The notes beneath the pieces are model-generated. The model made no database searches. It was not told where the DNA came from and worked only from the letters and a program-made list of their open reading frames with translations. A stretch of DNA of 64,000 nucleotides from Dehalococcoidia bacterium (lineage in GTDB: Bacteria > Chloroflexota > Dehalococcoidia > Dehalococcoidales > UBA3254), in contig JANYAV010000014.1 of assembly GCA_025361145.1 (NCBI GenBank), positions 5,658 to 69,657 of the forward strand, given 5' to 3'. This document shows, piece after piece, positions 3,733 through 37,600 of the stretch. A program made the position numbers and the translations under genes. Numbering within the stretch: the first letter of the stretch is position 1; each line of letters opens with the position of its first letter.

Positions 3733-4329
3733 ATGAGTGAGCAGGGCAAGAAACAAGAAGGACAAATGGGGAGTTATGCGCCTTTTTACGATATAATTAT
3801 GTTTTTGTTGACCTTAGGCCGAGAACAAAAGCTGCGGCAGGAAGAAATCAGACTGGCTCAGCTTAAGCCAGGGGACAAAGTTCTTGAAATTGGCTGCGGC
3901 ACCGGGACTTTAAGTCTTGCCGCCAAAACATTTATTGGAACATCCGCTGAAATGACTGGTATTGATATCGCTCCCGAGATGCTAGCGGCTGCCAGAAAAA
4001 AGGCTGCCAGGAAAAGTGCAGCTGTTACTTTTCAAGAAGGCAGTATTGCCAAAATTCCTTTTCCGGATAAGCGTTTTGATGTGGTAATATGCAGTTTCAT
4101 GATCTTCCATATGCCCGAGGAAGTGAGATTGAAAGGATTTACAGAGATATATCGTGTTCTGAAATCCGGCGGTCATTTATTTATCTTTGACGGCGACTCA
4201 AAAAATCCGCGTTATAATGCGGATTCATTAGTTCCGATCTTAAAAGAGCGCTCCTTCACCGGCGTAGAAGCAGATAGATACAAATTCATCTATTTTAAGG
4301 CCTTCTTTATACGGGCTAACAAAGCGTAA
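3733..4329 (+). CDS. Class I SAM-dependent methyltransferase (UbiE-like)
   Basis: VLEIGCGTG, GIDIAPEML, FDVV and RVLKSGG motifs. GGAG RBS before ATG 3733. Confidence 0.85.
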   Translation: MSEQGKKQEGQMGSYAPFYDIIMFLLTLGREQKLRQEEIRLAQLKPGDKVLEIGCGTGTLSLAAKTFIGTSAEMTGIDIAPEMLAAARKKAARKSAAVTFQEGSIAKIPFPDKRFDVVICSFMIFHMPEEVRLKGFTEIYRVLKSGGHLFIFDGDSKNPRYNADSLVPILKERSFTGVEADRYKFIYFKAFFIRANKA

Positions 4330-4569: not shown

Positions 4570-5195
4570 AGCCCAACCATAACCTGAAATACCCACTGTG
4601 ATTCCCTTTCAGCCTTTTCCTTGAAAGGAAAAGTGCTTTCATACTCGGCGAATTGGCTTTCATCGGCGGCGTACGCAGCGCTCTCAATAAATCTCCCCGG
4701 CATTTTAGCCAGGGCGCCTGGCTGCAGCTCCAGCGCTAGCAGAGCCCAGGCTAATTTGCCGTCAGAGGTTTGGATATCATATCTTTCGGCACATCTGAAA
4801 CCGAAACGGCTGTAATACCTCGGATCTCCGTAAATGCACACCGCCGGATAGCCCATAGACCCGGCGATATTAAGACTATGTTTAATTAAGGCGCTGCCGA
4901 TACCCTGTTTCTGTAACTGGGGCGGCACGCTGACGGGCCCAAAGCTGATGACGGGTACTTTTTTCCCTTCAGAGTCTTCAATGATTCCGCGGCTGTAAAC
5001 AATATGCCCGACTATCTGTCCTTCTTTTTCAGCCACGAAGTCCAGCTCAGGAATAAAATCGGCATGCTTTCTGAGGTTGTGCAGCACAAAATGTTCGCCG
5101 CAGCCTGGAACATAAAGGTTCCAGAAGGCATCGCGTGTCAATTCCTCAACAGCCCTGAAATCCTTTTCATTTTCCCTTCTGATGCTAATAGCCAT
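4560..5195 (-). CDS. GNAT N-acetyltransferase (YhbS-like)
   Basis: FGPVSV.P.LQKQGIGSALI acetyl-CoA motif; GDPRYYSRFGF. AGGAG RBS before ATG 5195. Confidence 0.9.
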   Translation of the reverse strand: MAISIRRENEKDFRAVEELTRDAFWNLYVPGCGEHFVLHNLRKHADFIPELDFVAEKEGQIVGHIVYSRGIIEDSEGKKVPVISFGPVSVPPQLQKQGIGSALIKHSLNIAGSMGYPAVCIYGDPRYYSRFGFRCAERYDIQTSDGKLAWALLALELQPGALAKMPGRFIESAAYAADESQFAEYESTFPFKEKAERESQWVFQVMVGLRY

Positions 5196-5556
5196 GTCCG
5201 CTCCTGATTGATTCACCATATTGCCGCATAATTATAATACAAAATTAACCAGTGCTTTCAAAATACAAATTACACGCACTAAATCCAGTGGATCCCCTTG
5301 ACATTCCTTCATATTCGCCTTAAAGTGCTATCATTATGAATAAAGAAACATACCATTTTATCAAGAAGATATTTTACTTAGGATAATAACATGGGTTGTA
5401 ATCATGAGTACGGGGTTTTTACTCCTTTTTGTACTAAGAAAGATTTGGCCAGGACACTTAAACTAATAATTGATATTGACGTTACACATCGAGGTGATCG
5501 AGTGAATTATTGTTATAGCCCAAATCATATTTCTGTTTGGCCACTGGAGTAGAGAT

Positions 5557-5964
5557 ATGTTAGATACCATATCCAATATCTTCTTTAATATTTATGCTCG
5601 TTGGGCAGACCGTTCAATCATCAAGATTAAAATAAAACACCTGGATTATGTGCTACGAAACAACCACCCAAACAGTCCGTTTGTGATTATCTCATCTTGT
5701 TCTAGCTATTATTCTGCTGAGGTTGAATTCTCACATTCTGGGAAAGCCACTACCATCAAAGATGTAATGTTAATGATTAACGACCAGCAAAAACTTGAGC
5801 CAAGTTCATTTAACCCAATCAAACTTGAGCATGGGGATTATAAAAAAGAAACATTGTGTTTCCCTATTGAAGAAAAATTAGCGGTACAAACCGGCTCCTT
5901 TGAAATGCAGGTTATTTACGATTTAGAAAAAATCAAAAAGTTAAAAGGAAAATTTCCTTGTTAA
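5557..5964 (+). CDS. Hypothetical protein (AT-rich)
   Basis: 135-aa ORF with GGAG RBS; no recognised motif. Confidence 0.6.
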   Translation: MLDTISNIFFNIYARWADRSIIKIKIKHLDYVLRNNHPNSPFVIISSCSSYYSAEVEFSHSGKATTIKDVMLMINDQQKLEPSSFNPIKLEHGDYKKETLCFPIEEKLAVQTGSFEMQVIYDLEKIKKLKGKFPC

Positions 5965-6000
5965 GGATGCTCGGTCATCGGATTCTCGGCAATTTAAATT

Positions 6001-6843
6001 ATGAATAAATCTGATATTTCATCTCAACGAAATGATGGATGCTTGATAAGAGGCAATCCTCGTGAGTTTTTTGGCTGGGCGATTGTTTGTTACATAGATA
6101 TTCTTGGAATATCACTTAATGTTAGGGATAATTGGGGAGAACATTACGAATCCGCTCACAATAAGTTGCTTCGTATAAAAGAGCATATCCCTACGGCTGA
6201 TGAACATACACAAGCTATTTTTGCCATCTGTGACCCCAAAACAAATAGAGAGTTTGAAAGATACCTTTCAATTACAAGAACATGGTCGGATTCCATTGTG
6301 ACTATGCTGGCTTTTCCAAATTCACCGACAAATTGTGATTCTCAAGAATTCAGTACACGAGTAATAAGCGTTCTTTATGCTTTAAGATTTATTTGGCGGC
6401 AATCTCTACGAGAAGGATTTACGATTAGAGGCGGAATTGAATTTGGGGAAATGTTTTGGAATGATACTGATTTCATCGGTCCTGCTCTCGTAAACGCGTA
6501 TAAACTTGAAAATAAAATGGCACATACTTCACGTATTTTGATTGGTCCCACTTTACTAAATATAATCATCGAATTTTCTAATGTATCTTCCAAGGTTAGT
6601 CCAGATGTTCAAAGTCTAATAGATGCTTTTCTGGTTAGCGGAGACCATAAAATATTCGTAAATCCTCATTTTGCAGTTGGCAAGGATATGATTGGAATAC
6701 TGGAGGCATTGTGCCAAAAGGCTAGTGCAGACTCGATAAAAATAAAATATCATAATGTAATTGAAATACTAAAAATTCCAGAAGGAAGATTGTCACATCC
6801 AACATTAGATGAAATCCGTAGATGCATAACACTTGGATATTGA
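6001..6843 (+). CDS. Class III nucleotide cyclase-like fold protein
   Basis: YIDILG, WSDSIV, IRGGIEFGE and GPALVNAYKLE..RILI match the adenylate/guanylate cyclase-like pattern. Confidence 0.6.
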   Translation: MNKSDISSQRNDGCLIRGNPREFFGWAIVCYIDILGISLNVRDNWGEHYESAHNKLLRIKEHIPTADEHTQAIFAICDPKTNREFERYLSITRTWSDSIVTMLAFPNSPTNCDSQEFSTRVISVLYALRFIWRQSLREGFTIRGGIEFGEMFWNDTDFIGPALVNAYKLENKMAHTSRILIGPTLLNIIIEFSNVSSKVSPDVQSLIDAFLVSGDHKIFVNPHFAVGKDMIGILEALCQKASADSIKIKYHNVIEILKIPEGRLSHPTLDEIRRCITLGY

Positions 6844-7078
6844 ATTTAATAATGAAGGGCGAAAAATTACGAGTGTTTAATAACCTGAGGGACATTGATT
6901 CCGAATGATACTTGTGAGTCTAATTTCCCCATTGAGTTCCTGTTTGATCTTCCCACTTTTCATTAAACCCCGATCCACCATCCAACCTGAACATGGCTCA
7001 CAGGGTGACACATTCAAGGGCTCACCCTTTTTGTTGCCCAATTTAATAATCCGTTCTCTGTAATTTGGCATTTGTAGA

Positions 7079-7107
7079 TTGATACATAGTGCCGTATATG
7101 GTACCAT
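7079..7107 (+). promoter_or_regulatory. hicAB promoter with a probable autoregulatory palindrome
   Basis: TTGATA-17bp-TACCAT, with the imperfect inverted repeat gtgcc-gtatat-ggtac overlapping the spacer. Confidence 0.5.
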
Positions 7108-7120
7108 TTATTGAGGGCTG

Positions 7121-7345
7121 ATGACTAAAAAAGACCGTCGTGAACAGAAAATCCGCAATAATACGGCTAATGTCTCACTAACTGAGTTTGAGGCTTTAAT
7201 AAAGCGCTATGGTGAAATTGTCGAAGGGGGCAGCCATCCTAAAGCCCATATTAACCAGCACTATTATCCCTATAAACGCAGTAATCCGGTAGATGGTCAT
7301 TATGTCAGGGGTGTGATCCGCTTAATCGATGAGATGGAGGGGTAA
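7121..7345 (+). CDS. hicA: HicA-family toxin
   Basis: 74 aa, basic; GGSH catalytic motif; directly upstream of hicB. Confidence 0.8.
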   Translation: MTKKDRREQKIRNNTANVSLTEFEALIKRYGEIVEGGSHPKAHINQHYYPYKRSNPVDGHYVRGVIRLIDEMEG

Positions 7346-7350
7346 GAATA

Positions 7351-7872
7351 ATGGAGAAAGATATCAAAGCCCAGGTTGAATATTATTTAAAATTACCCTA
7401 TACCATGACTGTCCAATATCAGGCTGAGCAAGGTGGCTATTATATCGCCGGCTTTTTGGAGCTGCCTGATTTAACTATGACTGGTTCTACTCGTGAAGAA
7501 GCTATTCGAGAATTACTTCTCGAAGCTCCTGAATGGTTTGAATTGTGCATCAAAAGCGGATATAAAATACCCTTACCGTCTCAGCCTTCTACCTATAGTG
7601 GACGGATTAATTTTCGCATGCCGAAACACCTGCACCGTGCTGTCGCCGTAATCGCTGCCAGAGAGGGGGTTAGTATTAATCAGTATCTCCTCTCGGCCGT
7701 TGCTCAAGCTGCCGGAGCAGAAGAAAAGCAAGATGGTGATACCAGCCGTCGGGGGAAGATAGAGCAAAAAAGAAAGTCTCTAGCCACTCATGTGCGTGAA
7801 GCCAGAGCTGAATATCCAAAGGGCAGGACGAAAAAAGGTTCGGTTAATGATCTTCGGAAGGATCTTTCCTGA
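7351..7872 (+). CDS. hicB: HicB-family antitoxin with a C-terminal extension
   Basis: YYLKLPY..GGYY..ELP..G.T.EEA; YSGRINFRMPKHLH..A.REGVSINQY ribbon-helix-helix domain. Confidence 0.9.
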   Translation: MEKDIKAQVEYYLKLPYTMTVQYQAEQGGYYIAGFLELPDLTMTGSTREEAIRELLLEAPEWFELCIKSGYKIPLPSQPSTYSGRINFRMPKHLHRAVAVIAAREGVSINQYLLSAVAQAAGAEEKQDGDTSRRGKIEQKRKSLATHVREARAEYPKGRTKKGSVNDLRKDLS

Positions 7873-8114
7873 TGACTGCTCTGATTTTAGCCTCACAGGG
7901 TGACACCTTTTTGTTATCCAATTCCTCCTCCCCTCTCCTGCTTTACGCCTGCAAGGACGGACCTTGCACGCCTGGCTCGCCCCCTTATCTCTTCTTAAAT
8001 CCTTAATCCTTAATCTTTAATCTTTAATCCCCTTCTTGTCTCGCAGCTCGTCGCTCTCAGCTGGAATTTTGTTGACTAATCTGTCACTTTACATTAGCTG
8101 ATTATCTGTTACGA

Positions 8115-8135
8115 TATAATAAGAACATTAGTTCG
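8115..8135 (+). promoter_or_regulatory. -10 box followed by a LexA (Cheo-type) SOS box
   Basis: TATAAT (8115-8120), then AGAAC-atta-GTTCG (8122-8135). GAAC-N4-GTTC is the Firmicutes/Dehalococcoides LexA consensus. Confidence 0.7.
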
Positions 8136-8190
8136 TATTAACTGGAATGATGAGCTTACCGAAATCATTACGTCCTTTAGGAGGAATATC

Positions 8191-8571
8191 ATAGACTACT
8201 TAATAAAACATAAAAGCGGGGGTCAACCGGGAAATCAGAATGCCCGTAAACACGGGTTATATTCTAAAACTCTGCCACGCGACCAGAAACGGCAATTTAA
8301 TCGCGCTCTTAAAGTGACTGGCATTGACCAGGAAATTGCCCTCTTGCGCGTCCTTTTAAACCAGCTGGTTGCTAAGGATAACTCTAACTTTCCCCTTATC
8401 TTCCAGGCGATTAAAACCCTGGGCCATCTTTCTGATATTAAGTCCGGACATAATCAGGATTTTACCCAGTTGAAAGAAGCTGTCACCGCCGTCCTCTCCG
8501 AATGGGAAATCCCTGTTCCCCCCGAGAAAGACAGTGCTGCTTCATCGGATAGCAAAAATCATAAATCGTAA
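8191..8571 (+). CDS. Putative terminase small subunit
   Basis: The frame extends upstream of GTG 8314 to include GGQPGNQNARKHGLYS, a motif typical of small-terminase N-termini. AGGAGG (8179-8184) precedes ATA 8191. Lies directly upstream of terL. Confidence 0.65.
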   Translation: MDYLIKHKSGGQPGNQNARKHGLYSKTLPRDQKRQFNRALKVTGIDQEIALLRVLLNQLVAKDNSNFPLIFQAIKTLGHLSDIKSGHNQDFTQLKEAVTAVLSEWEIPVPPEKDSAASSDSKNHKS

Positions 8572-8633
8572 ATCACTCATCCAAAACAGGGTTAGGATTT
8601 AAAATTTGGTATTTATAAATTGGGATTTGTAAT

Positions 8634-10169
8634 TTGAATTATGATCTTCGTCCTTATCAAGATAAAATAGCCCGGGCCATCCTCAATAGCATTTTTTATC
8701 ATAAGGGACTGACCTTTTCTGTCGAGATCGCCCGTCAGGGCGGGAAAAATGAGCTCTCCTCTCACCTTGAAAGGTTTCTTCTTACTATAAATATTAACAA
8801 CCCTTTGCAGCTGGTGAAATGCTCTCCCACTTTCAAACCTCAAACCCTTATCTCCATGACTCGTTTAAAGGACCGTTTAAATGATATCGGCTTGTACGGC
8901 TGGACTTCTGAGTCTGGCTATATCATTCGGTTAGGTGAAGCTCGTGCTGTTTTTCTTTCCGCTGATGTCGGTTCGCATGTCGTCGGTAATACCGCCCATC
9001 TGTTGCTTGAGATCGATGAGTCTCAGGATGTGACTAAAGATAAATTTACCAAGGAATTCAAACCTATGGGGGCTTCCACTAATTGCACCGTGGTCCATTA
9101 CGGTACTACCTGGGACGACTCCACTCTTCTTGAAGAAGTTAAACAAACTAATCTGGAGTTAGAGAAAAAGGACGGCATTCAGCGCCACTTCCGTTATGAC
9201 TGGCAGGAAGTTGCTAAATATAACCTCGACTATCTCAACTATGTCGAATCAGAACGTCACCGTTTGGGCGAAAACCACCCCTTGTTTCTTACTCAGTACC
9301 GACTGCTTCCCATCCATGGCGGTGGCGGCTTTCTCAATTCCACACAAGTAACTCAAATTCTAGGCAATCACCCTCGATTGCACCACCCCGCTGACCGCAT
9401 TGTGCTAAATACTGGAACCCTTTCGTCTCCATTTTCCGAAACTAGAAGCTCGAAGCTCGAAGCTGGAAGCTCCAAGGTTTACGTTGCCGGTATTGATCTC
9501 GCCGGTGAAGCCGAAACTGGCGATGATATTTTCCTCAGAACCTTGAACCCGCGTCGTGATTCCACTGTAATCACCATCGCTGAACTGACAACTCAAGGTC
9601 TGACCTCGCCGTATGGCAGGTCAGACCCTGAGAAACCCTTCATAAATCCTGATTCAAATCCCTTATACCCTTTTCTAAATCAATCTCTTTGTATAAAGGT
9701 CGTCGAACACTATTCGTGGGTTGGGGCACGACACACCGACCTTTATCCTAAAATGGTCGATCTTTTAAAAAACGTCTGGCATTGTAAAAGGATCGTAGTG
9801 GATTCCACTGGTGTTGGTGAGCCGGTTGCCTCTTTTCTTCGAGGGGCTCTGGGCAGTCGGGTTGTCCCTTTTAAATTCACCGCTCGCTCTAAATCTGATT
9901 TGGGTTTTAATTTATTGGCCGCCATCAACTCCGGCCGATTAAAAATCTATGCCGCGGATGGTTCTCCTGAATATCAGGAAATGATGATGAATTTGACCAG
10001 AGCTAAGAGTGTTTATCGCCCTAATCAGACCCTTAACTTCTTTGTCGATCCCAGGGACGGACACGATGATTTCTTGATGAGTCTCGCTCTTGTCGTCGAA
10101 GCCGCCGGTCTCTACCAACCCCGTACCGCTAAAGGCAGCGGTACTTTTCTTGAATCTTGCGTACATTAA
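8634..10169 (+). CDS. Phage terminase large subunit
   Basis: LRPYQ adenine motif, ARQGGKNE Walker A, LLEIDESQD Walker B, and RNaseH-like nuclease motifs AGIDLAG / VVDSTGVG / HDDFLMSLAL. Confidence 0.85.
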   Translation: MNYDLRPYQDKIARAILNSIFYHKGLTFSVEIARQGGKNELSSHLERFLLTININNPLQLVKCSPTFKPQTLISMTRLKDRLNDIGLYGWTSESGYIIRLGEARAVFLSADVGSHVVGNTAHLLLEIDESQDVTKDKFTKEFKPMGASTNCTVVHYGTTWDDSTLLEEVKQTNLELEKKDGIQRHFRYDWQEVAKYNLDYLNYVESERHRLGENHPLFLTQYRLLPIHGGGGFLNSTQVTQILGNHPRLHHPADRIVLNTGTLSSPFSETRSSKLEAGSSKVYVAGIDLAGEAETGDDIFLRTLNPRRDSTVITIAELTTQGLTSPYGRSDPEKPFINPDSNPLYPFLNQSLCIKVVEHYSWVGARHTDLYPKMVDLLKNVWHCKRIVVDSTGVGEPVASFLRGALGSRVVPFKFTARSKSDLGFNLLAAINSGRLKIYAADGSPEYQEMMMNLTRAKSVYRPNQTLNFFVDPRDGHDDFLMSLALVVEAAGLYQPRTAKGSGTFLESCVH

Positions 10170-10572
10170 TAATTTTATAATTTTGACTTTTGACTCCTAA
10201 AGGTCGGACCTCGCAGTCCATTTGCCCAATGCAGGTCCGACCTTATGAAACCCCGGTTTCCTTTACCCGCTTGATTACTTTTAAGTTTTCGCAGATCTCG
10301 CATGCGTGAAACGCATCGGGATGACTTTTGACCTTTGCCTTTTAACTTCACCTTCACTCGCATCGGCTCGTCTACCACCCGTGACCCACTGGTTCCGACC
10401 CGATAACCACCCGTTCCCACTCGTTTGGGACTCGTTTCCACCCTTGTAAGTCACCATTTTAGCCTCAAATACCCAGGTTTAAACTGGCATTCCCCTTGAC
10501 TCGTTTCAAAAATAGCTCCTGTCTGAAGGTCGGTTCTTGCGCTCCATATCTCCTAACGCAAGGCCCGACCTT
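9596..10572. repeat. REP-like hairpin family AAGGTCGGACCT...AGGTCCGACCTT
   Basis: Copies at 9597-9627 (inside terL), 10200-10244 and 10526-10572; a related short hairpin at 7950-7968. Confidence 0.75.
10356..10443. repeat. Degenerate tandem array with a 10.5-bp period
   Basis: acYcg-type cores start at 10356, 10366, 10377, 10388, 10398, 10409, 10419, 10430 and 10440. Confidence 0.7.
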
Positions 10573-10834
10573 ATAGTCTCACAAGGTTTCATCCTGTTTT
10601 AAGACGCAACAGGTTTTAACCCTTTGCTTTAGAATATATAGCACTTCTTATTCTTCATTTTGTACCGAAGCTGCTGCCGGGACCGTCCCGTGGGTATAGA
10701 TTATTGATGCTATAATAGAATAAATTCAGGTTCCTTTGGGCAGTACCATAAAGTATTGGCCTGCGACTTGTGAATCAATGCCCGCTATGATAGTTAGGTA
10801 AGACCCTCCTCAAATCGCAAATTAATTATAGGAG

Positions 10835-13189
10835 ATGAAGATGACTCGTAAAATCGCTTTCCTGGCAGTGATAATTTTGGTGGCTATTACGCTTATTTTA
10901 AGTGCCTGCGGTGGCGGTAAAACCGATAATAACAGCCCTGCGAGCACAACACCTGGCGTAAGCACTGTCCCCCAGCGCGGCACAACGGGTACCATTACTA
11001 CAGGCAAAGCGGTTGAATCCAGTCCCATCCCGGTAACTCCCCAGGGAGGTAGTTTTACGCTCAACCAACCCGATAGTCCGATTAATGGTATGGTGCTGGG
11101 AGTGCCTGCCGGAGCTTATGCCAACAATCTGGAATTTAAAATTTCTTACGTTCCCATCAACAAGCATACCTTTGGTGAGAATTTTAACCCCCTGACGCCA
11201 CTGATAAAAATCGATAACGGCGGAGCTTACGCCGATGCAATCATGGAAGTTACCATACCGGTCACGGTGCCGGCTGACAGTTTTGCCATGGGCTTTATCT
11301 ACGACCAAAAAACTAAGACCTTGCAGGGTTTGCCCACGTTAGCCCAGACCCAGACCTCGATCACGGTGGGCACCCGGCATTTTACCGATTTTCTAATCAG
11401 TATGATTCCTCTCACTAAACTAAAGAGTGACATAGATTCAGGTTTTCGTCCAGGTATCGATGATTGGCAATTCACCAACCGCGGCTCCTACATTGCCAAA
11501 GGTGGTCATTGCGCCGGTCAAAGCGTGACTGCTCTCTGGTACTACGTCACTCAACCGGATGGGAAAGATCTGACATTGTACAATCGTTATGATAATAACG
11601 GAGATAAGCCGGCCACCCCAGCTTTATGGCAGGATGATTCCCTGGGGTACAGGTTTGCATCTACCGTCCATCATGATATCAACTGGGATAGCTTTGAAAA
11701 TGAATTCTGGACCAGCCTGGCCGGGGTAAATGACGATTGGACCTGGAAATTGTTCGCTTACTCTATGCAAATTACTGGAGAACCTCAGGAAGTGGGCATC
11801 TACAGCAACGCCGGCGGCGGCCATGATATGATCTGTTACCGGGTCAAAGACGGAAACCTGTATATAGCCGATCCTAATTATCCCGGTAATACCGAAAGGC
11901 GCATCGAATTTAAAGATGGCAAATTTGTGCCTTATAACTCGGGGGCAAATGCCGAAGAAATTGCTAAAGGCAACGGCAAAGCCTATGAAACAATCGAGTA
12001 TTGCGCCAAAACTACCACTGTAAGCTGGGATCAAATCGCCCAGCGCTGGGCTGAGTTTAAAGATGGTACTATTGGTGATGATAGTTTTCCTGCCGTAAGC
12101 ATTGCATATAAAGCCGCAGATGGCAATTTCACGCAGTTAACGGATGGCTTTATTTCTGCCGAGAAACTGATTGCGATTACCACATCTTCAGCGACGCCAG
12201 AAACAGGTTGTTATGTATTCCGCGATGGAGTGCAACTCAAATGGGATGCTAATGGCAATTACGAGCTGAATCCGGGCATCAATAAATTGGGTATATATAT
12301 CATCGCCTGGGTTGACGCTAAGGATAAGAACGGCAATCCGATTAAAGTTTCCAAATATATTGATTTCAAATATCTAAATGTAATTTACGGTGCGCTTACC
12401 ATAGATCCCCCGTCGCTGGATGGCGAACCTAATACCAATTACACTTTTACGGCCAAGATTGATGCTCCACCCGCTAATGCCGTTTACGATTGGTATTTTA
12501 ATGGCACACCACTACAGAAAGGGGCTTCAAAAACCCTGGCTAAGAGTTTCCCTGCCCCAGGATTCTACACGATCTCAGTGAAGCTATTGGACAGCACGGG
12601 AAAGGAAATATTGGAGGCTCAATCCAATATAAATATTCAGACCAAGAAGCCCAGTCAATTGTCTCAATTACAAAAATTCAACCGGGTTAACGGTCATGCC
12701 ACCGGAAAATATACTTATGAGACCTGGACGGCGGAGAAGACTTCAACTGAAGTGTACGGTTACAGCTTTGAGATACCCTGGAAGAACTATCCTCAGGATG
12801 GCCCTATGCCCATTACCTGGAGTGGTTCTACCTTTAGTGGGAAAATAGAATATAACAAAGACGGTAATATTTTTACCGCGGAAGTGAGCGGGAGTGTTTC
12901 TGAAGACGGCACCCTGATTAATTCCGTGACTTATAAAGATACTTACAAGAGCGGAGATCCAAGCACTTCACATTATGCTTTAGGTTATACGCACAGCCTT
13001 GCCTTCTCTAATCTTAAAATACTGCTCGTGGATTATGGCTATGCCCCCGCCCGCGGTACGACCACCCCGACGATAGTCGATGAAAAGATTGAGTATTATG
13101 ATGGGGCAGTTTCAAAAACAGTCAAATTTAAATCGCTGGAATGGACTTCTAGCGCGACCTGCGAATTACGTCTCAGCTATGCCCCATAG
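10835..13189 (+). CDS. Large lipoprotein with a candidate papain-like domain and a PKD-like domain
   Basis: Signal peptide with LSAC lipobox and Thr/Pro linker. GHCAGQS / GHDMICY / YIADPNY triad pattern. Y.W.F..F..PG.YTI PKD-like segment. Confidence 0.7.
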   Translation: MKMTRKIAFLAVIILVAITLILSACGGGKTDNNSPASTTPGVSTVPQRGTTGTITTGKAVESSPIPVTPQGGSFTLNQPDSPINGMVLGVPAGAYANNLEFKISYVPINKHTFGENFNPLTPLIKIDNGGAYADAIMEVTIPVTVPADSFAMGFIYDQKTKTLQGLPTLAQTQTSITVGTRHFTDFLISMIPLTKLKSDIDSGFRPGIDDWQFTNRGSYIAKGGHCAGQSVTALWYYVTQPDGKDLTLYNRYDNNGDKPATPALWQDDSLGYRFASTVHHDINWDSFENEFWTSLAGVNDDWTWKLFAYSMQITGEPQEVGIYSNAGGGHDMICYRVKDGNLYIADPNYPGNTERRIEFKDGKFVPYNSGANAEEIAKGNGKAYETIEYCAKTTTVSWDQIAQRWAEFKDGTIGDDSFPAVSIAYKAADGNFTQLTDGFISAEKLIAITTSSATPETGCYVFRDGVQLKWDANGNYELNPGINKLGIYIIAWVDAKDKNGNPIKVSKYIDFKYLNVIYGALTIDPPSLDGEPNTNYTFTAKIDAPPANAVYDWYFNGTPLQKGASKTLAKSFPAPGFYTISVKLLDSTGKEILEAQSNINIQTKKPSQLSQLQKFNRVNGHATGKYTYETWTAEKTSTEVYGYSFEIPWKNYPQDGPMPITWSGSTFSGKIEYNKDGNIFTAEVSGSVSEDGTLINSVTYKDTYKSGDPSTSHYALGYTHSLAFSNLKILLVDYGYAPARGTTTPTIVDEKIEYYDGAVSKTVKFKSLEWTSSATCELRLSYAP

Positions 13190-34645: not shown

Positions 34646-37600
34646 ATGAACATTTATGCTTTTATTCCATTATGTGCAACGATTGCTTATATTCCGTTAC
34701 TGGTAACCACTGCCAGTACTCGGCCCTGGCGTTCGCAGCATAAGCTCTTTTTATTATTTCTCATAACCGCTATGTTATGGAGCTTGACGGATTACGTTTT
34801 CCGTGCAAATATTTTAATACAATATAATCCCATTTTGTTCCGGACCACAATCGTTTTGGGTTTTGGCATGGCCATACAATTCCACTGCTTTGTTTCATAC
34901 TTTTTCCCTTCGGGCAGAGCTCGTTGGTTACCATTTGCATATGGTTGTCTAATGTTAATTATTGTTCTCGTAATTTTTAAAATAATACCTCAAAACATTG
35001 GTATGCACGGAGACTTGCTTGTTCCCAATTATGGCTTCTCAGTTGTTTTTTTAACTGTTCCTCTATTAACACTTCTTTTCAGAGATGTATATGTTCTTAT
35101 TCCAGGACTGAAGAGTCCGCAGAATCCAGTTTTATATAACCAAAAAATATCTCTCTTACTGAGTCTTGGAATACTGGCAGTATTCATGTCAATGTCAGTT
35201 TTTTCTTTTGGAAGCCGTTTTCCAATGAGCCATTTAGGCAATACAATCAACGCACTGGTATTAAGTTACGCGGTGGTGGGTCGGCAATTAGTAGATATAC
35301 GTTTTGTACTTCGCCGGGGTTTTATCTGGTTGAGTATTTCTTTAATTGGTATTGCTTGTTATCTAACATTACTTTTGGCTTTTCATGCCTTTATTGGGAT
35401 TGAACTGACCACAGTTTCTATGTTTTGTGCCATAATTTCAGGCGTCATATCGGTAATATTGATTTACAAACTGCGAGATTTGATATCACGTACTATGGGC
35501 AGGGCTTTTCAGGGTGATAGTTTTAAATATCGTGAACAGTTGATCGATTTTGCCAACAAAATCCATAATGTATTCAGCCTGAAAGAGCAAGGCGCTGAAT
35601 TGCTTAAGTTAACCATTCGTGCGATCGGCTGCAGTAAAGCCGGATTACTTTTCCTGGATTCGAACGGTGATTTCGAGACACAACTAGCTGAATCTGAGGA
35701 TAGTATTGGAGCACTGAGTCACTTCAAGATAAGAGGCGATAATCCTGTTATTGAATACATCAAGAGAGAGAGGCATCCGTTGACCAGAGAAAATCTGGCT
35801 ATATTACCTGAATTTTTAGGGCTCTGGCAGCAGGAGAAAGAAACCATCGATAAAAACGGTATAGAGCTTTTTATGCCGCTTATTAGCCGCGAAAGATTGA
35901 TCGGTTTACTGATTATGGATAAAAAAAGGTTAGGACATTACAATCTGGAAGACTATACCCTTCTGGAAGAAATTACTAACAAAGTAGCAGTCAGCATTGA
36001 GAAAGAATATCTGCGTGAACAACTAAAGGAGAGAGAGCAAGAGCTCTCGGTTATTAATCGTTCCAATGCCATTATATCTTCAAGCCTGGATATACAGAGA
36101 ATATATGACAACTTTATAAAAGAATTAAAGAATGTGGTTGATGTTGATTGGGCGGCGATAAGTGTAATAGAAGATACAGAAATTCATTTTATGGCGATCT
36201 TTACCGAACTAGGCTCTCCCTGGAAAGTTGGGGAAACAATTCCATTAAAGGGGACTGCCACGGAGTGGGTAGCCACACATCAGAAAACCTTGATTGAACC
36301 TGATCTGGCAATTGAAAATCGATTCTCTACCGGCAAGTATCACCTGCAGCAATCGCTCCGCTGTTTCGCTTTTATGCCACTAATAATTTCGAATCAGGTC
36401 ATCGGAGCACTATCCGTAGCCAGCAGGAAACCGGATGTTTACAACCCACGTCATATTAAATTACTGGAACAATTGGCTTCACAGATTTCTATGCCTATAG
36501 AAAACGCACGGTTATATGCCAAGTCTGAACGCATGGCTAGAGTAGATAGCCTGACCGGTTTGCTGAACCGCCGTTCTCTGGATGAAATACTACCCAGTGA
36601 AGTCGGACGTCATTCTCGCTACGGTGGTGTATTTTCTCTTATGATTCTGGATTTAGATTCTTTTAAAGCGCTGAATGATAGTTATGGGCATCTAGCTGGG
36701 GACGAATTACTGCGGCAGATAGGTATTATCATGAGCAATGCTATACGTGAGTCCGACCGTGCTTTCAGATATGGTGGAGATGAATTTGCCATTCTACTAC
36801 CTCAGACCTCTATCGAGGCAGCTACAAAAGTAGCCGAGCGAATTCGTCAGCAGACTTATGCCATGATGGAAATAGGATCGAAACCTATTAGCATTAGCCT
36901 GGGTTTGGCTAGTTGGCCTGCAGACGGTGTGGTGGCTAACGATATTGTAGCTGCGGCTGACGTCGCTTTGTATCAGGCAAAACGCGGCGGTGGCAATCGG
37001 ACTCAGTGTTCGGTTATCAAATTTAGTGCTGGGACGAAAGAGGCCGCCATAAGATCCAATGAGACCCATGATAGCAATGCTTTAAGCGCCATCTTTGCAA
37101 TGGCGGCCACAGTGGATACCCGGGACAGGTTCACTCATAATCACTCTAAAAGAGTGCATGAATTTACAATTGCTATCGGTAACGGCTTGGGGATGAAACC
37201 TCTGGAATTAAATCTCCTGGGGACATGCGCACTGCTCCATGATATTGGCAAGATCGGCATTAGCGATGAGATATTAAATAAACAAGAGATTTTATCAGAA
37301 TATGAATGGGAAACCATTAGATCCCATCCAATGCTGGGGGCGGCCATTGTCAGTCATTCCACCCAACTTAAACCCTGCATTGCAGGAATATTGCATCATC
37401 ACGAAAAATATGACGGTACAGGCTATCCGGATGCTTTGAAAGGGGGGGAGATACCTCTTGAATCACGCATACTGGCTATTGCGGATGCCTTTGCCGCGAT
37501 GACCTCAGAACGGGTGTATTCAAAAGAATTGACTTATGAAGCGGCCATAAGTGAGATCAAAGGTGGTGCCGGAGTGCAATTCGATCCGAAATTGGTTAAA

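Follow-up and report, generated by a model that had tools for sequence, protein, structure and literature searches.

An orphan terminase operon behind a LexA-type box in a Dehalococcoidia genome and the particle-gene cluster of its relatives

Why would a bacterial chromosome keep a phage-type DNA-packaging gene pair behind a LexA-type operator when no head gene accompanies it? The question is raised by a stretch of 64,000 nucleotides from a Dehalococcoidia bacterium of the order Dehalococcoidales (assembly GCA_025361145.1, contig JANYAV010000014.1, positions 5,658 to 69,657 of the forward strand; hereafter the window), in which a small-terminase-like gene (terS) is followed by a large terminase gene (TerL). 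The window lies on contig C14 of an assembly of 25 contigs that is 96% complete, and its genome is referred to as G000. We consider it probable that positions 8110-10169 hold a damage-inducible packaging operon, the displaced module of a class-wide, LexA-controlled system resembling a gene transfer agent (GTA), which in this genome has become an orphan.

The window operon and its LexA-type box

The operon, in window coordinates, is made up as follows.

8088-8120, plus strand: promoter region, with a -35-like TTTACA at 8088-8093 and two overlapping -10 candidates (consensus scan and direct reading)
8123-8134, strandless: candidate LexA (Cheo-type) operator, GAACATTAGTTC, with a perfect palindromic core; AGAAC-N4-GTTCG corresponds to 8122-8135
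8147-8194, plus strand: mini open reading frame (ORF) of 15 codons with two ATGs, its TAG stop overlapping the terS start (direct reading; translation putative)
8179-8184, plus strand: Shine-Dalgarno sequence AGGAGG, 6 nt ahead of ATA 8191 (direct reading)
8191-8571, plus strand: small-terminase-like gene of 126 codons with a probable ATA start and the N-terminal motif GGQPGNQNARKHG
8634-10169, plus strand: TerL, 511 aa, TTG start, an N-terminal packaging ATPase followed by a C-terminal RNase H-like nuclease, in an intact frame

The identity of TerL is drawn from its motifs and from phage homologs. The Walker A sequence RQGGKNE (residues 34-40, with N instead of S/T), the Walker B sequence LLLEIDESQD and a YGTTW motif are invariant in 11/11 aligned sequences, as are the nuclease residues D288, D390 and H477-D478-D479 in the 11 aligned relatives. 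These motifs are shared by the phage proteins compared, and the GKN form of Walker A is also present in the Bacillus phage vB_BboS-125; since this is a real phage TerL, the idea that GKN marks a dead ATPase was rejected. A tblastn search with TerL against 50,697 phage records matched 14 of them, four over at least 80% of the query, the best match (E 2e-40) having 28.5% identity over 98% of the length; 13 of the 14 are annotated as terminase or TerL and one, a partial match, as a hypothetical protein. The large terminases of vB_BboS-125 (E 2e-40) and BCD7 (E 2e-32) align with TerL over 95-98% of its length at 27-28.5% identity and share its motifs, and in both phages the gene directly downstream encodes the portal, an SPP1-type portal being likewise the partner of TerL in relatives of the present organism. 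The phage gene, however, precedes the portal in a complete virus genome, whereas the window gene stands without one.

Profile searches point in the same direction. The PHROG TerL family phrog_5909 matches at 3e-6 and Pfam Terminase_6C (PF17289) falls just short of its cut-off (22.5 against 22.6 bits), while none of the NCBIfam models matched. A sequence-profile search of PDB returned values of only E 0.3-0.8, all three matches being TerL nuclease domains. In an AlphaFold model built from 11 sequences, poor as a whole (overall pLDDT 48, nuclease domain 70-89) and used solely for ranking nuclease-domain matches, Foldseek placed TerL nuclease domains first (G20c, E 2.6e-5, TM 0.61-0.66). More than 3,000 homologs of TerL are found at about 60-70% identity, the few named ones being hypothetical proteins of Dehalococcoidales, Dehalococcoidia or Chloroflexota. 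An exact look-up of five proteins matched none of them, probably owing to a difference between the ORF starts used here and the annotated ones.

The upstream gene is harder to name. Its frame is open from 8101 to 8571, ending in the TAA at 8569-8571, and holds no ATG, GTG or TTG before the GTG at 8314; nevertheless, the product read from 8191 aligns residue by residue with the ortholog of the same genus, whose ATG corresponds to the ATA at 8191. The PHROG terS families phrog_1889 and phrog_509 match it at E 1e-5 to 7e-5 over residues 6-57 only, the similarity being confined to an N-terminal GxPxGNQNAxKHG motif, and the protein of relatives reaches 6.5e-9 against PHROG terS families. NCBIfam TerS_not_xtmA gives 8e-4 with 19 bits against a cut-off of 120, and Pfam yielded no match. 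A hidden Markov model (HMM) built from the terS proteins of relatives, to which the window protein is 43-47% identical, recognizes it at E 3.5e-42. The identity of this small protein as TerS comes mainly from its position and its N-terminal motif. Its stop is separated from the TerL ORF by a gap of 62 nt and, as judged from their sequence, the two genes are a real operon.

Two readings of the promoter are available. A consensus scan proposes TACGAT at 8110-8115, with a spacer of 16 nt from TTTACA and a TG before it, and direct reading proposes TATAAT at 8115-8120, followed by AA and then by the box GAACATTAGTTC. With either -10 element the box would span about +1 to +20 of the predicted promoter and cover the start of transcription. 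The motif GAAC-N4-GTTC is not enriched, neither in the window (2 occurrences against 0.64 expected, a count reached by 12 of 100 shuffles) nor in the 1.70 Mb genome (15 occurrences against about 25 expected from base composition); the weight of the box comes from position and not from frequency, namely from its place on a promoter, from the homology of that place to the operator of relatives and from the same motif near the genome's own lexA. The second match of the window is GAACCGCCGTTC at 36565-36576.

An earlier note, made from the letters of this stretch, had described an intact terL with its Walker A/B and nuclease acidic residues, a terS-like gene upstream and AGAAC-N4-GTTCG two bases after a TATAAT, which it took for a LexA site on the promoter. 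The full-length frame with its invariant motifs, the position of terS with the relatives' model (the PHROG matches being weak), and a perfect GAAC-N4-GTTC overlapping the predicted transcription start uphold this description.

The particle-gene cluster of relatives and its operators

In relatives the same terS-TerL pair is found inside a cluster of about 14 kb set between housekeeping genes. The flanks are shared by 7/9 loci of 20 kb from different families of the order, with a CT398-like gene, RNase H, ctpA and pheST on one side and rpsU, yqeY, a radical-SAM gene and the ribonucleotide reductase (RNR) gene on the other. The gene order is the following.

Part 1: nrdR, RNR, NYN, radical-SAM, yqeY, rpsU, a 70-aa protein (K15), a protein of about 667 aa, an adaptor-like protein
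Part 2: 2-4 variable small genes, major capsid, scaffold-like protein, SPP1-type portal, a small helix-turn-helix (HTH) protein
Part 3: a divergent Ig/TIG protein of about 800 aa, then TerL and terS
Part 4: a divergent CT398-like zinc-ribbon protein, RNase H, ctpA, pheS-pheT

The portal is recognized by PF05133 (4e-32) and phrog_64 (8e-46), and the HK97-type capsid by phrog_212 (1e-71), the closest phage capsids being 41% identical. The protein of about 667 aa, modelled with a pLDDT of 79, appears as a sialidase-like propeller joined to a baseplate hub of the gp27/Mu gp44/VgrG type and matches the hubs of Mu gp44, T4 gp27, VgrG and PVC at E 1e-13 to 1e-16; with this fold the cluster would code for head, connector and tail tip. 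The HTH protein, which opens the portal operon, resembles a late activator (phrog_836, E 1e-4). Genes for a tail tube, tape measure, integrase, replication or lysis were not recognized in the cluster, several small genes of which are unannotated, and a search for tyrosine recombinases (PF00589) inside the cluster was negative in 5/5 genomes, a match in one of them lying in a lineage-specific insert at a distance of 4 kb from the cluster. In one genome (G003) the order has been rearranged to capsid, terS, adaptor, TerL and hub, and the block of scaffold, capsid, adaptor, hub and 70-aa protein keeps its order in seven genomes from other orders, all of them closed or nearly so. Most relatives also have a conserved small ORF before terS (MRLLRLA..., about 35-45 codons; L009, L012, L018), which is absent in the window and to which the window mini-ORF has no homology.

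Conservation of the cluster was compared with that of its neighbors as mean pairwise identity over five families, one genome each.

Cluster proteins: capsid 85%, TerL 76%, portal 71%, terS 69%
Housekeeping proteins: RNR 75%, PheS 74%, S21 72%, YqeY 64%, CtpA 55%

The most distant genome is the same one for nearly all the cluster and housekeeping proteins compared, a shared pattern which argues for vertical descent under strong purifying selection and not for a spreading prophage. The window TerL shares 65-70% of its residues with relatives from other families, as against 65-75% for RNR and 59-62% for PheS. The view of the cluster as a site-specific mobile element was rejected, there being no integrase and its divergence tracking that of housekeeping genes. 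Its distribution in samples of increasing breadth is given below.

Order sample, 151 genomes: capsid in 88, TerL in 112, portal in 99
Class sample, 201 genomes: capsid in 113 (84/146 of the high-quality ones), TerL in 136
Phylum sample, 201 genomes: capsid in 20, 9 of them outside the class

Of the 151 genomes from the order, 80 have both capsid and TerL, 32 have TerL without capsid, 8 have capsid without TerL and 31 lack both; the capsid is single-copy class-wide. Taken together with the operators described below, these data make the cluster look like a GTA-like particle system of Dehalococcoidia that is passed on vertically and controlled by LexA. A host-domesticated or GTA-like nature had been suggested by the earlier note, and such an origin is favored over a recent prophage by the relatives of the window TerL, which are chromosomal genes in conserved synteny at 60-80% identity, against at most 28.5% in phage records. 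A full-text search of the literature found no description of the cluster; supplementary files, which lay outside that search, might hold gene lists.

The loci of relatives carry two boxes each and no more, the first upstream of terS and the second upstream of the HTH-portal operon, so the check proposed in the earlier note, that head genes elsewhere should carry the same LexA-type box, comes out positively in the portal operons of relatives. In these genomes the operator sits between the -35 and the -10 of both cluster operons, in the form of a TTGAC-like -35, five bases, GAACAT(A/T)TGTGC and, directly after it, a TATTAT-like -10. The arrangement GAAC-N4-GT(G/T)C plus -10 precedes terS in 15/19 genomes and the HTH-portal genes in 6/6; among the four terS misses, one had 56 nt of upstream sequence only and two come from the window's family, where terS is located downstream of the capsid gene in the same operon.

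The variable half-site introduces a first alternative, namely that the box is the operator of a regulator other than LexA, for instance the HTH protein of the cluster, and that its likeness to the Cheo box is coincidental. In most genomes of the order the second half-site reads GTGC and not GTTC, which could mark another regulator, the late-activator-like HTH protein heads the portal operon, and both cluster promoters share a further conserved element, cGACAAAA, some 16 nt ahead of the -35, as a possible site for that protein. Nevertheless, we propose that the asymmetry arises because the constant G makes the TG of an extended -10, and perfect palindromes do occur at cluster promoters: in the window, at the portal of the same-genus genome G001, in G005, at terS of G011 and at both operons of G333, which belongs to another order. 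The G001 portal promoter repeats the window arrangement of a -10, two bases and a perfect box. The same motif is found, moreover, at lexA itself. In this genome lexA is encoded at C15:10581-11240 on the minus strand (PF01726, 62.8 bits), with a GAAC-N4-GTTC 26 nt upstream, and a perfect motif is also present at the lexA promoters of 5/5 relatives examined, which makes 6/6 genomes; in one of them (G012) it is the same 12-mer as the window box. As G000 has no homolog of the cluster HTH protein and still has a perfect box, a regulator encoded elsewhere on the chromosome, such as LexA, suggests itself, and we regard control by another regulator as improbable.

Two further occurrences of box-like sequences in G000 may be recorded. 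An insertion sequence (401-aa transposase, beginning MTRHSIKEY) breaks three contigs (C2:3487-4810, C12:11269-11427 and C16:1-159), and its left ends adjoin the LexA-box-like sites GAACATATGTTC, GAACATTTGATC and GAACAAATGAGC; the element may target such sites or carry them. At C21:106231 the full promoter form of relatives is found (TTTACA, 5 nt, GAACAATTGTGC, TAATAT) about 770 nt before a sugar nucleotidyltransferase gene, with no cluster gene nearby.

Among described systems, GTAs of the RcGTA type (Rhodobacter capsulatus, Dinoroseobacter shibae, Caulobacter) are, as far as the present cluster is annotated, similar in being phage-derived clusters for head, packaging and tail tip without integrase or replication genes, located at a conserved site, vertically inherited, under purifying selection and regulated by the host. 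Activation of RcGTA runs through CtrA/GafA. Links of GTAs with LexA or the SOS response are the subject of published papers (PMC6473078, PMC9632790). The relatives' cluster differs in its unrelated lineage (Chloroflexota), in having two divergent/convergent operons instead of one, in the want of a recognized tail tube or tape measure, with adaptor and hub-propeller only, and in an operator placed inside both promoters; furthermore, it is known from genes alone, and the window genome keeps only its terminase operon. PBSX-type defective prophages of Bacillus subtilis are SOS-induced, form non-infectious particles that package host DNA and belong to a host with a Cheo-box LexA regulon. They are, in contrast, myovirus-like, lineage-restricted and provided with a repressor of their own, whereas the present cluster is class-wide, minimal and itself preceded by LexA-type boxes. 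For cultures of Dehalococcoides, which lacks the capsid gene, a metavirome preprint reports no strong evidence of packaging for other regions of the genome; the IME1 element presented there is different from the cluster (10.64898/2026.09.15.751708).

The orphan state: loss, relic or selection

In order to learn what is left of the system in G000, the whole assembly was searched with HMMs of the cluster proteins (portal, capsid, scaffold, hub, 70-aa protein, HTH) and with the capsid and portal families PF05133, PF05065 and PF04860, and neither set gave a match. The remark of the earlier note that no portal or capsid gene is seen in the 64 kb thus extends to the assembly. Neither its suggestion of a GTA with head genes elsewhere in the genome nor the view that G000 itself runs a GTA finds support in this 96%-complete assembly, the particle genes being absent. 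The adaptor gene stands alone at C24:72691-73419, with unrelated neighbors on both sides, those that follow it lying across a 64-base contig overlap. The housekeeping flanks of the cluster all have homologs in G000 except the CT398-like gene, and the ancestral site after yqeY-rpsU on C24 is contiguous and holds a two-component system in place of cluster genes. On the assembled sequence, the window operon is an orphan, the particle genes being gone and the ancestral site empty.

It is conceivable that a complete GTA-like system exists, with head and tail genes in the parts missing from the assembly. G001 has a full portal (E 6e-225) with the same promoter form, so either the loss in G000 is recent or the genes lie in unassembled DNA, and 8/50 contig ends of this 96%-complete assembly have no overlap partner. 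However, neither the cluster models nor the three Pfam families have a match in the assembly, the adaptor has unrelated genes around it on either side of a contig junction, and the ancestral site lies in contiguous sequence and has no cluster gene; moreover, no capsid was found in G001 or in 5/6 other family members. We therefore judge this explanation quite unlikely.

Besides the window copy, the relatives' models find a second full TerL gene in G000, at C20:77942-79474 (501 aa, 60% identical; L002 1489-2994). It has no terS, and its promoter (TTGACT, 17 nt, the TATTAT-like TAATAT) carries a degenerate box with a GATC half-site; a CRISPR array lies about 1 kb away, at the contig end (L002 region 3990-4258). 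TerL fragments are present at C3:119431-119643 and C14:172964-173188, and four further terS-like sequences were detected. Three solitary terS-like copies, roughly 87-91% identical, with the GGQPGNQNARKHG motif and no TerL, are located at C1:26173-26505, at C2:3136-3507 and at the C21 start/C24 start, one of them adjoining the insertion sequence. In a TerL tree the window copy pairs with same-genus G001 (support 100/100), and the C20 paralog, on a long branch (0.51), groups with two further genera of the family (100/99), one of them that of G003 with its rearranged cluster. Genomes G033 and G028, in which the motif filter gave no ORF of 400 aa or more, and the truncated G037 were not in the tree, whose backbone is unresolved, with 11/17 forks open and the bootstrap not settled.

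Selection was assessed through the ratio of non-synonymous to synonymous divergence (dN/dS, omega). Between the window TerL and that of G001, dN is 0.18 and dS 2.5, and because dS is saturated in this pair and against the paralog, the omega of at most 0.07 is an upper bound only. The three closed Dehalococcoides genomes offer a clearer case. They have no capsid gene, and a deletion fuses the portal N-terminus, a piece of about 190-290 aa, to the hub C-terminus; fusion loci are L025 7012-9124, L047 4462-6531 and L049 269-1346 (G018, G126 and, in an unrelated family, G141). Omega in Dehalococcoides is 0.10-0.12 for TerL, 0.035-0.067 for terS, 0.09 and 0.11 for the remnants of portal and hub, respectively, and for HTH 0.05 between G018 and G126 and 0.26 in pairs with G063, as compared to 0.02-0.13 for 10 housekeeping genes with dS of 0.1-0.8. 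In G171, a closed genome of 3.0 Mb from another order, four terS-TerL pairs about 80% identical in DNA are present (L074-L077), only one of which adjoins HTH-portal, and the three extra pairs are intact; genomes related to G171 have 2-5 TerL matches each. Intact orphan pairs under low omega, together with extra pairs elsewhere, suggest that the orphan terminase is a recurrent, selected state of the class and not a peculiarity of this assembly.

The main rival is that the window operon is a relic in early decay, functionless since the particle genes were lost, not yet inactivated and with its box kept by inertia. The terS gene, with its ATA start, 44% identity to G001 and omega of 0.34, may be failing; TerL fragments lie on C3 and C14; the C20 paralog has no terS, a degenerate box and a long branch; presence in the window's family is patchy, TerL being found in 3/7 and the capsid in 1/7 other genomes; and deletions in Dehalococcoides look stepwise, the portal-hub fusion being followed by truncation of TerL in one species (G063). 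On the other hand, the window TerL is full-length, has all catalytic motifs and is conserved like RNR, with omega at most 0.07, and the operator is perfect. Likewise, terS, TerL, HTH and the portal and hub remnants of the capsid-less Dehalococcoides have omega of 0.04-0.12 over dS of 0.1-0.8, which does not look like neutral decay, and the three extra pairs of the closed genome from another order are intact. The earlier note had named patchy distribution, neutral dN/dS and homologs only in prophages as signs of a decaying prophage remnant; the first is seen in the window's family, where terS also has a non-canonical start. With that part of the expectation borne out, early decay stays a serious rival, although in our judgement an unlikely one.

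A satellite of the type of the staphylococcal SaPIs or other phage-inducible chromosomal islands (PICIs), redirecting the capsids of infecting phages to its own DNA, was a further suggestion of the earlier note. SaPIs are mobile islands with integrase, replicon and repressor, and their LexA-controlled packaging operon has terS only. The window arrangement, an SOS operator followed by terminase genes but no capsid gene, resembles that operon, and the pairs have multiplied in some genomes. However, TerL is present here, none of the 6 PF00589 matches of the genome falls on C14, no replication gene or att feature was seen, and the orthologs are chromosomal and syntenic, at a fixed site across families with housekeeping-like divergence and vertical inheritance. 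PADLOC and PHROG scans of the neighbors gave nothing satellite-like; PADLOC, run on TerL, terS and four upstream neighbors, found no defence family, one paralog match at 0.0085 being disregarded. A hijacker is highly improbable. The note's remaining suggestion, a repurposed SOS nuclease, is a conceivable role for the operon.

In addition to the GTGC half-sites, the G001 portal, the unpaired contig ends, the divergent terS, the truncated TerL of G063 and the thin representation in the family, a few points limit the reading as a LexA-controlled packaging module. LexA of Dehalococcoides reportedly binds GAAC-N4-GTTC, according to a paper of 2002; LexA binding and damage induction of the window operon are predicted from the motif. 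The label GTA-like reflects gene content, synteny and conservation. The structural model of TerL is poor, the adaptor assignment is weak (PF24175, 8e-4), and vertical inheritance was judged from identity patterns in five genomes and from synteny.

For the operon as a displaced, LexA-controlled module we propose the following mechanism. A LexA dimer on GAACATTAGTTC, overlapping the transcription start just after the -10, would keep the operon off. DNA damage would lead to RecA-stimulated self-cleavage of LexA and to transcription of terS and TerL. The small subunit would then mark DNA and recruit TerL, which would act as an ATP-driven translocase with an RNase H-type nuclease. As comparison with relatives shows, the operon itself is a displaced copy of packaging genes that belong to an ancient particle system of Dehalococcoidia, derived from a phage. 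Most likely, we infer, it would still make an active terminase after DNA damage.

Neighborhood of the operon and meaning for Dehalococcoidia

The gene order HicAB, terS, TerL, PKD-lipoprotein is not an assembly join, since positions 5000-11681 are recovered as a single contig with 0 differences in each of four metagenome runs, which belong to one study, may be the source of the assembly and serve as a check of its continuity only. Two features follow at the end of the operon.

10123-10144, plus strand: hairpin with a T-run that resembles a terminator and reaches into the final codons of TerL (consensus scan)
10198-10251, strandless: hairpin repeat resembling repetitive extragenic palindromic (REP) elements, of which blastn finds 12 or more copies across the genome, some of them next to the C20 TerL paralog and next to the C14 TerL fragment

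The repeat shows extra depth and loose ends in the metagenome runs, and REP-like hairpin repeats lie on both sides of the operon, the other one at 7949-8029. Directly upstream, at 7121-7872, is a toxin-antitoxin pair of a HicA-like protein (74 aa, no family match) and HicB (PF05534, 6e-10). Farther upstream, 5557-6843 holds two genes (135 and 280 aa), the larger of which matches only phrog_23933 (2e-12), a family of unknown function, with no PADLOC match.

A further-reaching proposal, which we hold to be unlikely, is that Dehalococcoidia carry an undescribed SOS-triggered GTA of independent origin whose terminase has an added, capsid-independent job. Such a job would explain both the LexA-boxed pairs kept after loss of the head genes and the three extra pairs; it could lie in processing DNA after damage, in filling foreign capsids or in giving one head several packaging specificities.

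Should the cluster produce particles, it would amount to a new GTA-like system, domesticated independently and coupled directly to the SOS response. It would extend over a whole class of environmentally dominant bacteria, most of them uncultured and some of them organohalide respirers employed in bioremediation, and would offer a concrete route for damage-triggered gene exchange in tiny, streamlined genomes. The reductive dehalogenase genes of the organohalide respirers in this class are known to move. The orphan state, here and in Dehalococcoides, asks what job a terminase has without a capsid and why selection keeps it. Cultured Dehalogenimonas-like genomes carry the full cluster and Dehalococcoides a capsid-less remnant, so both questions, that of the particle and that of the orphan terminase, can be put to the test at the bench.

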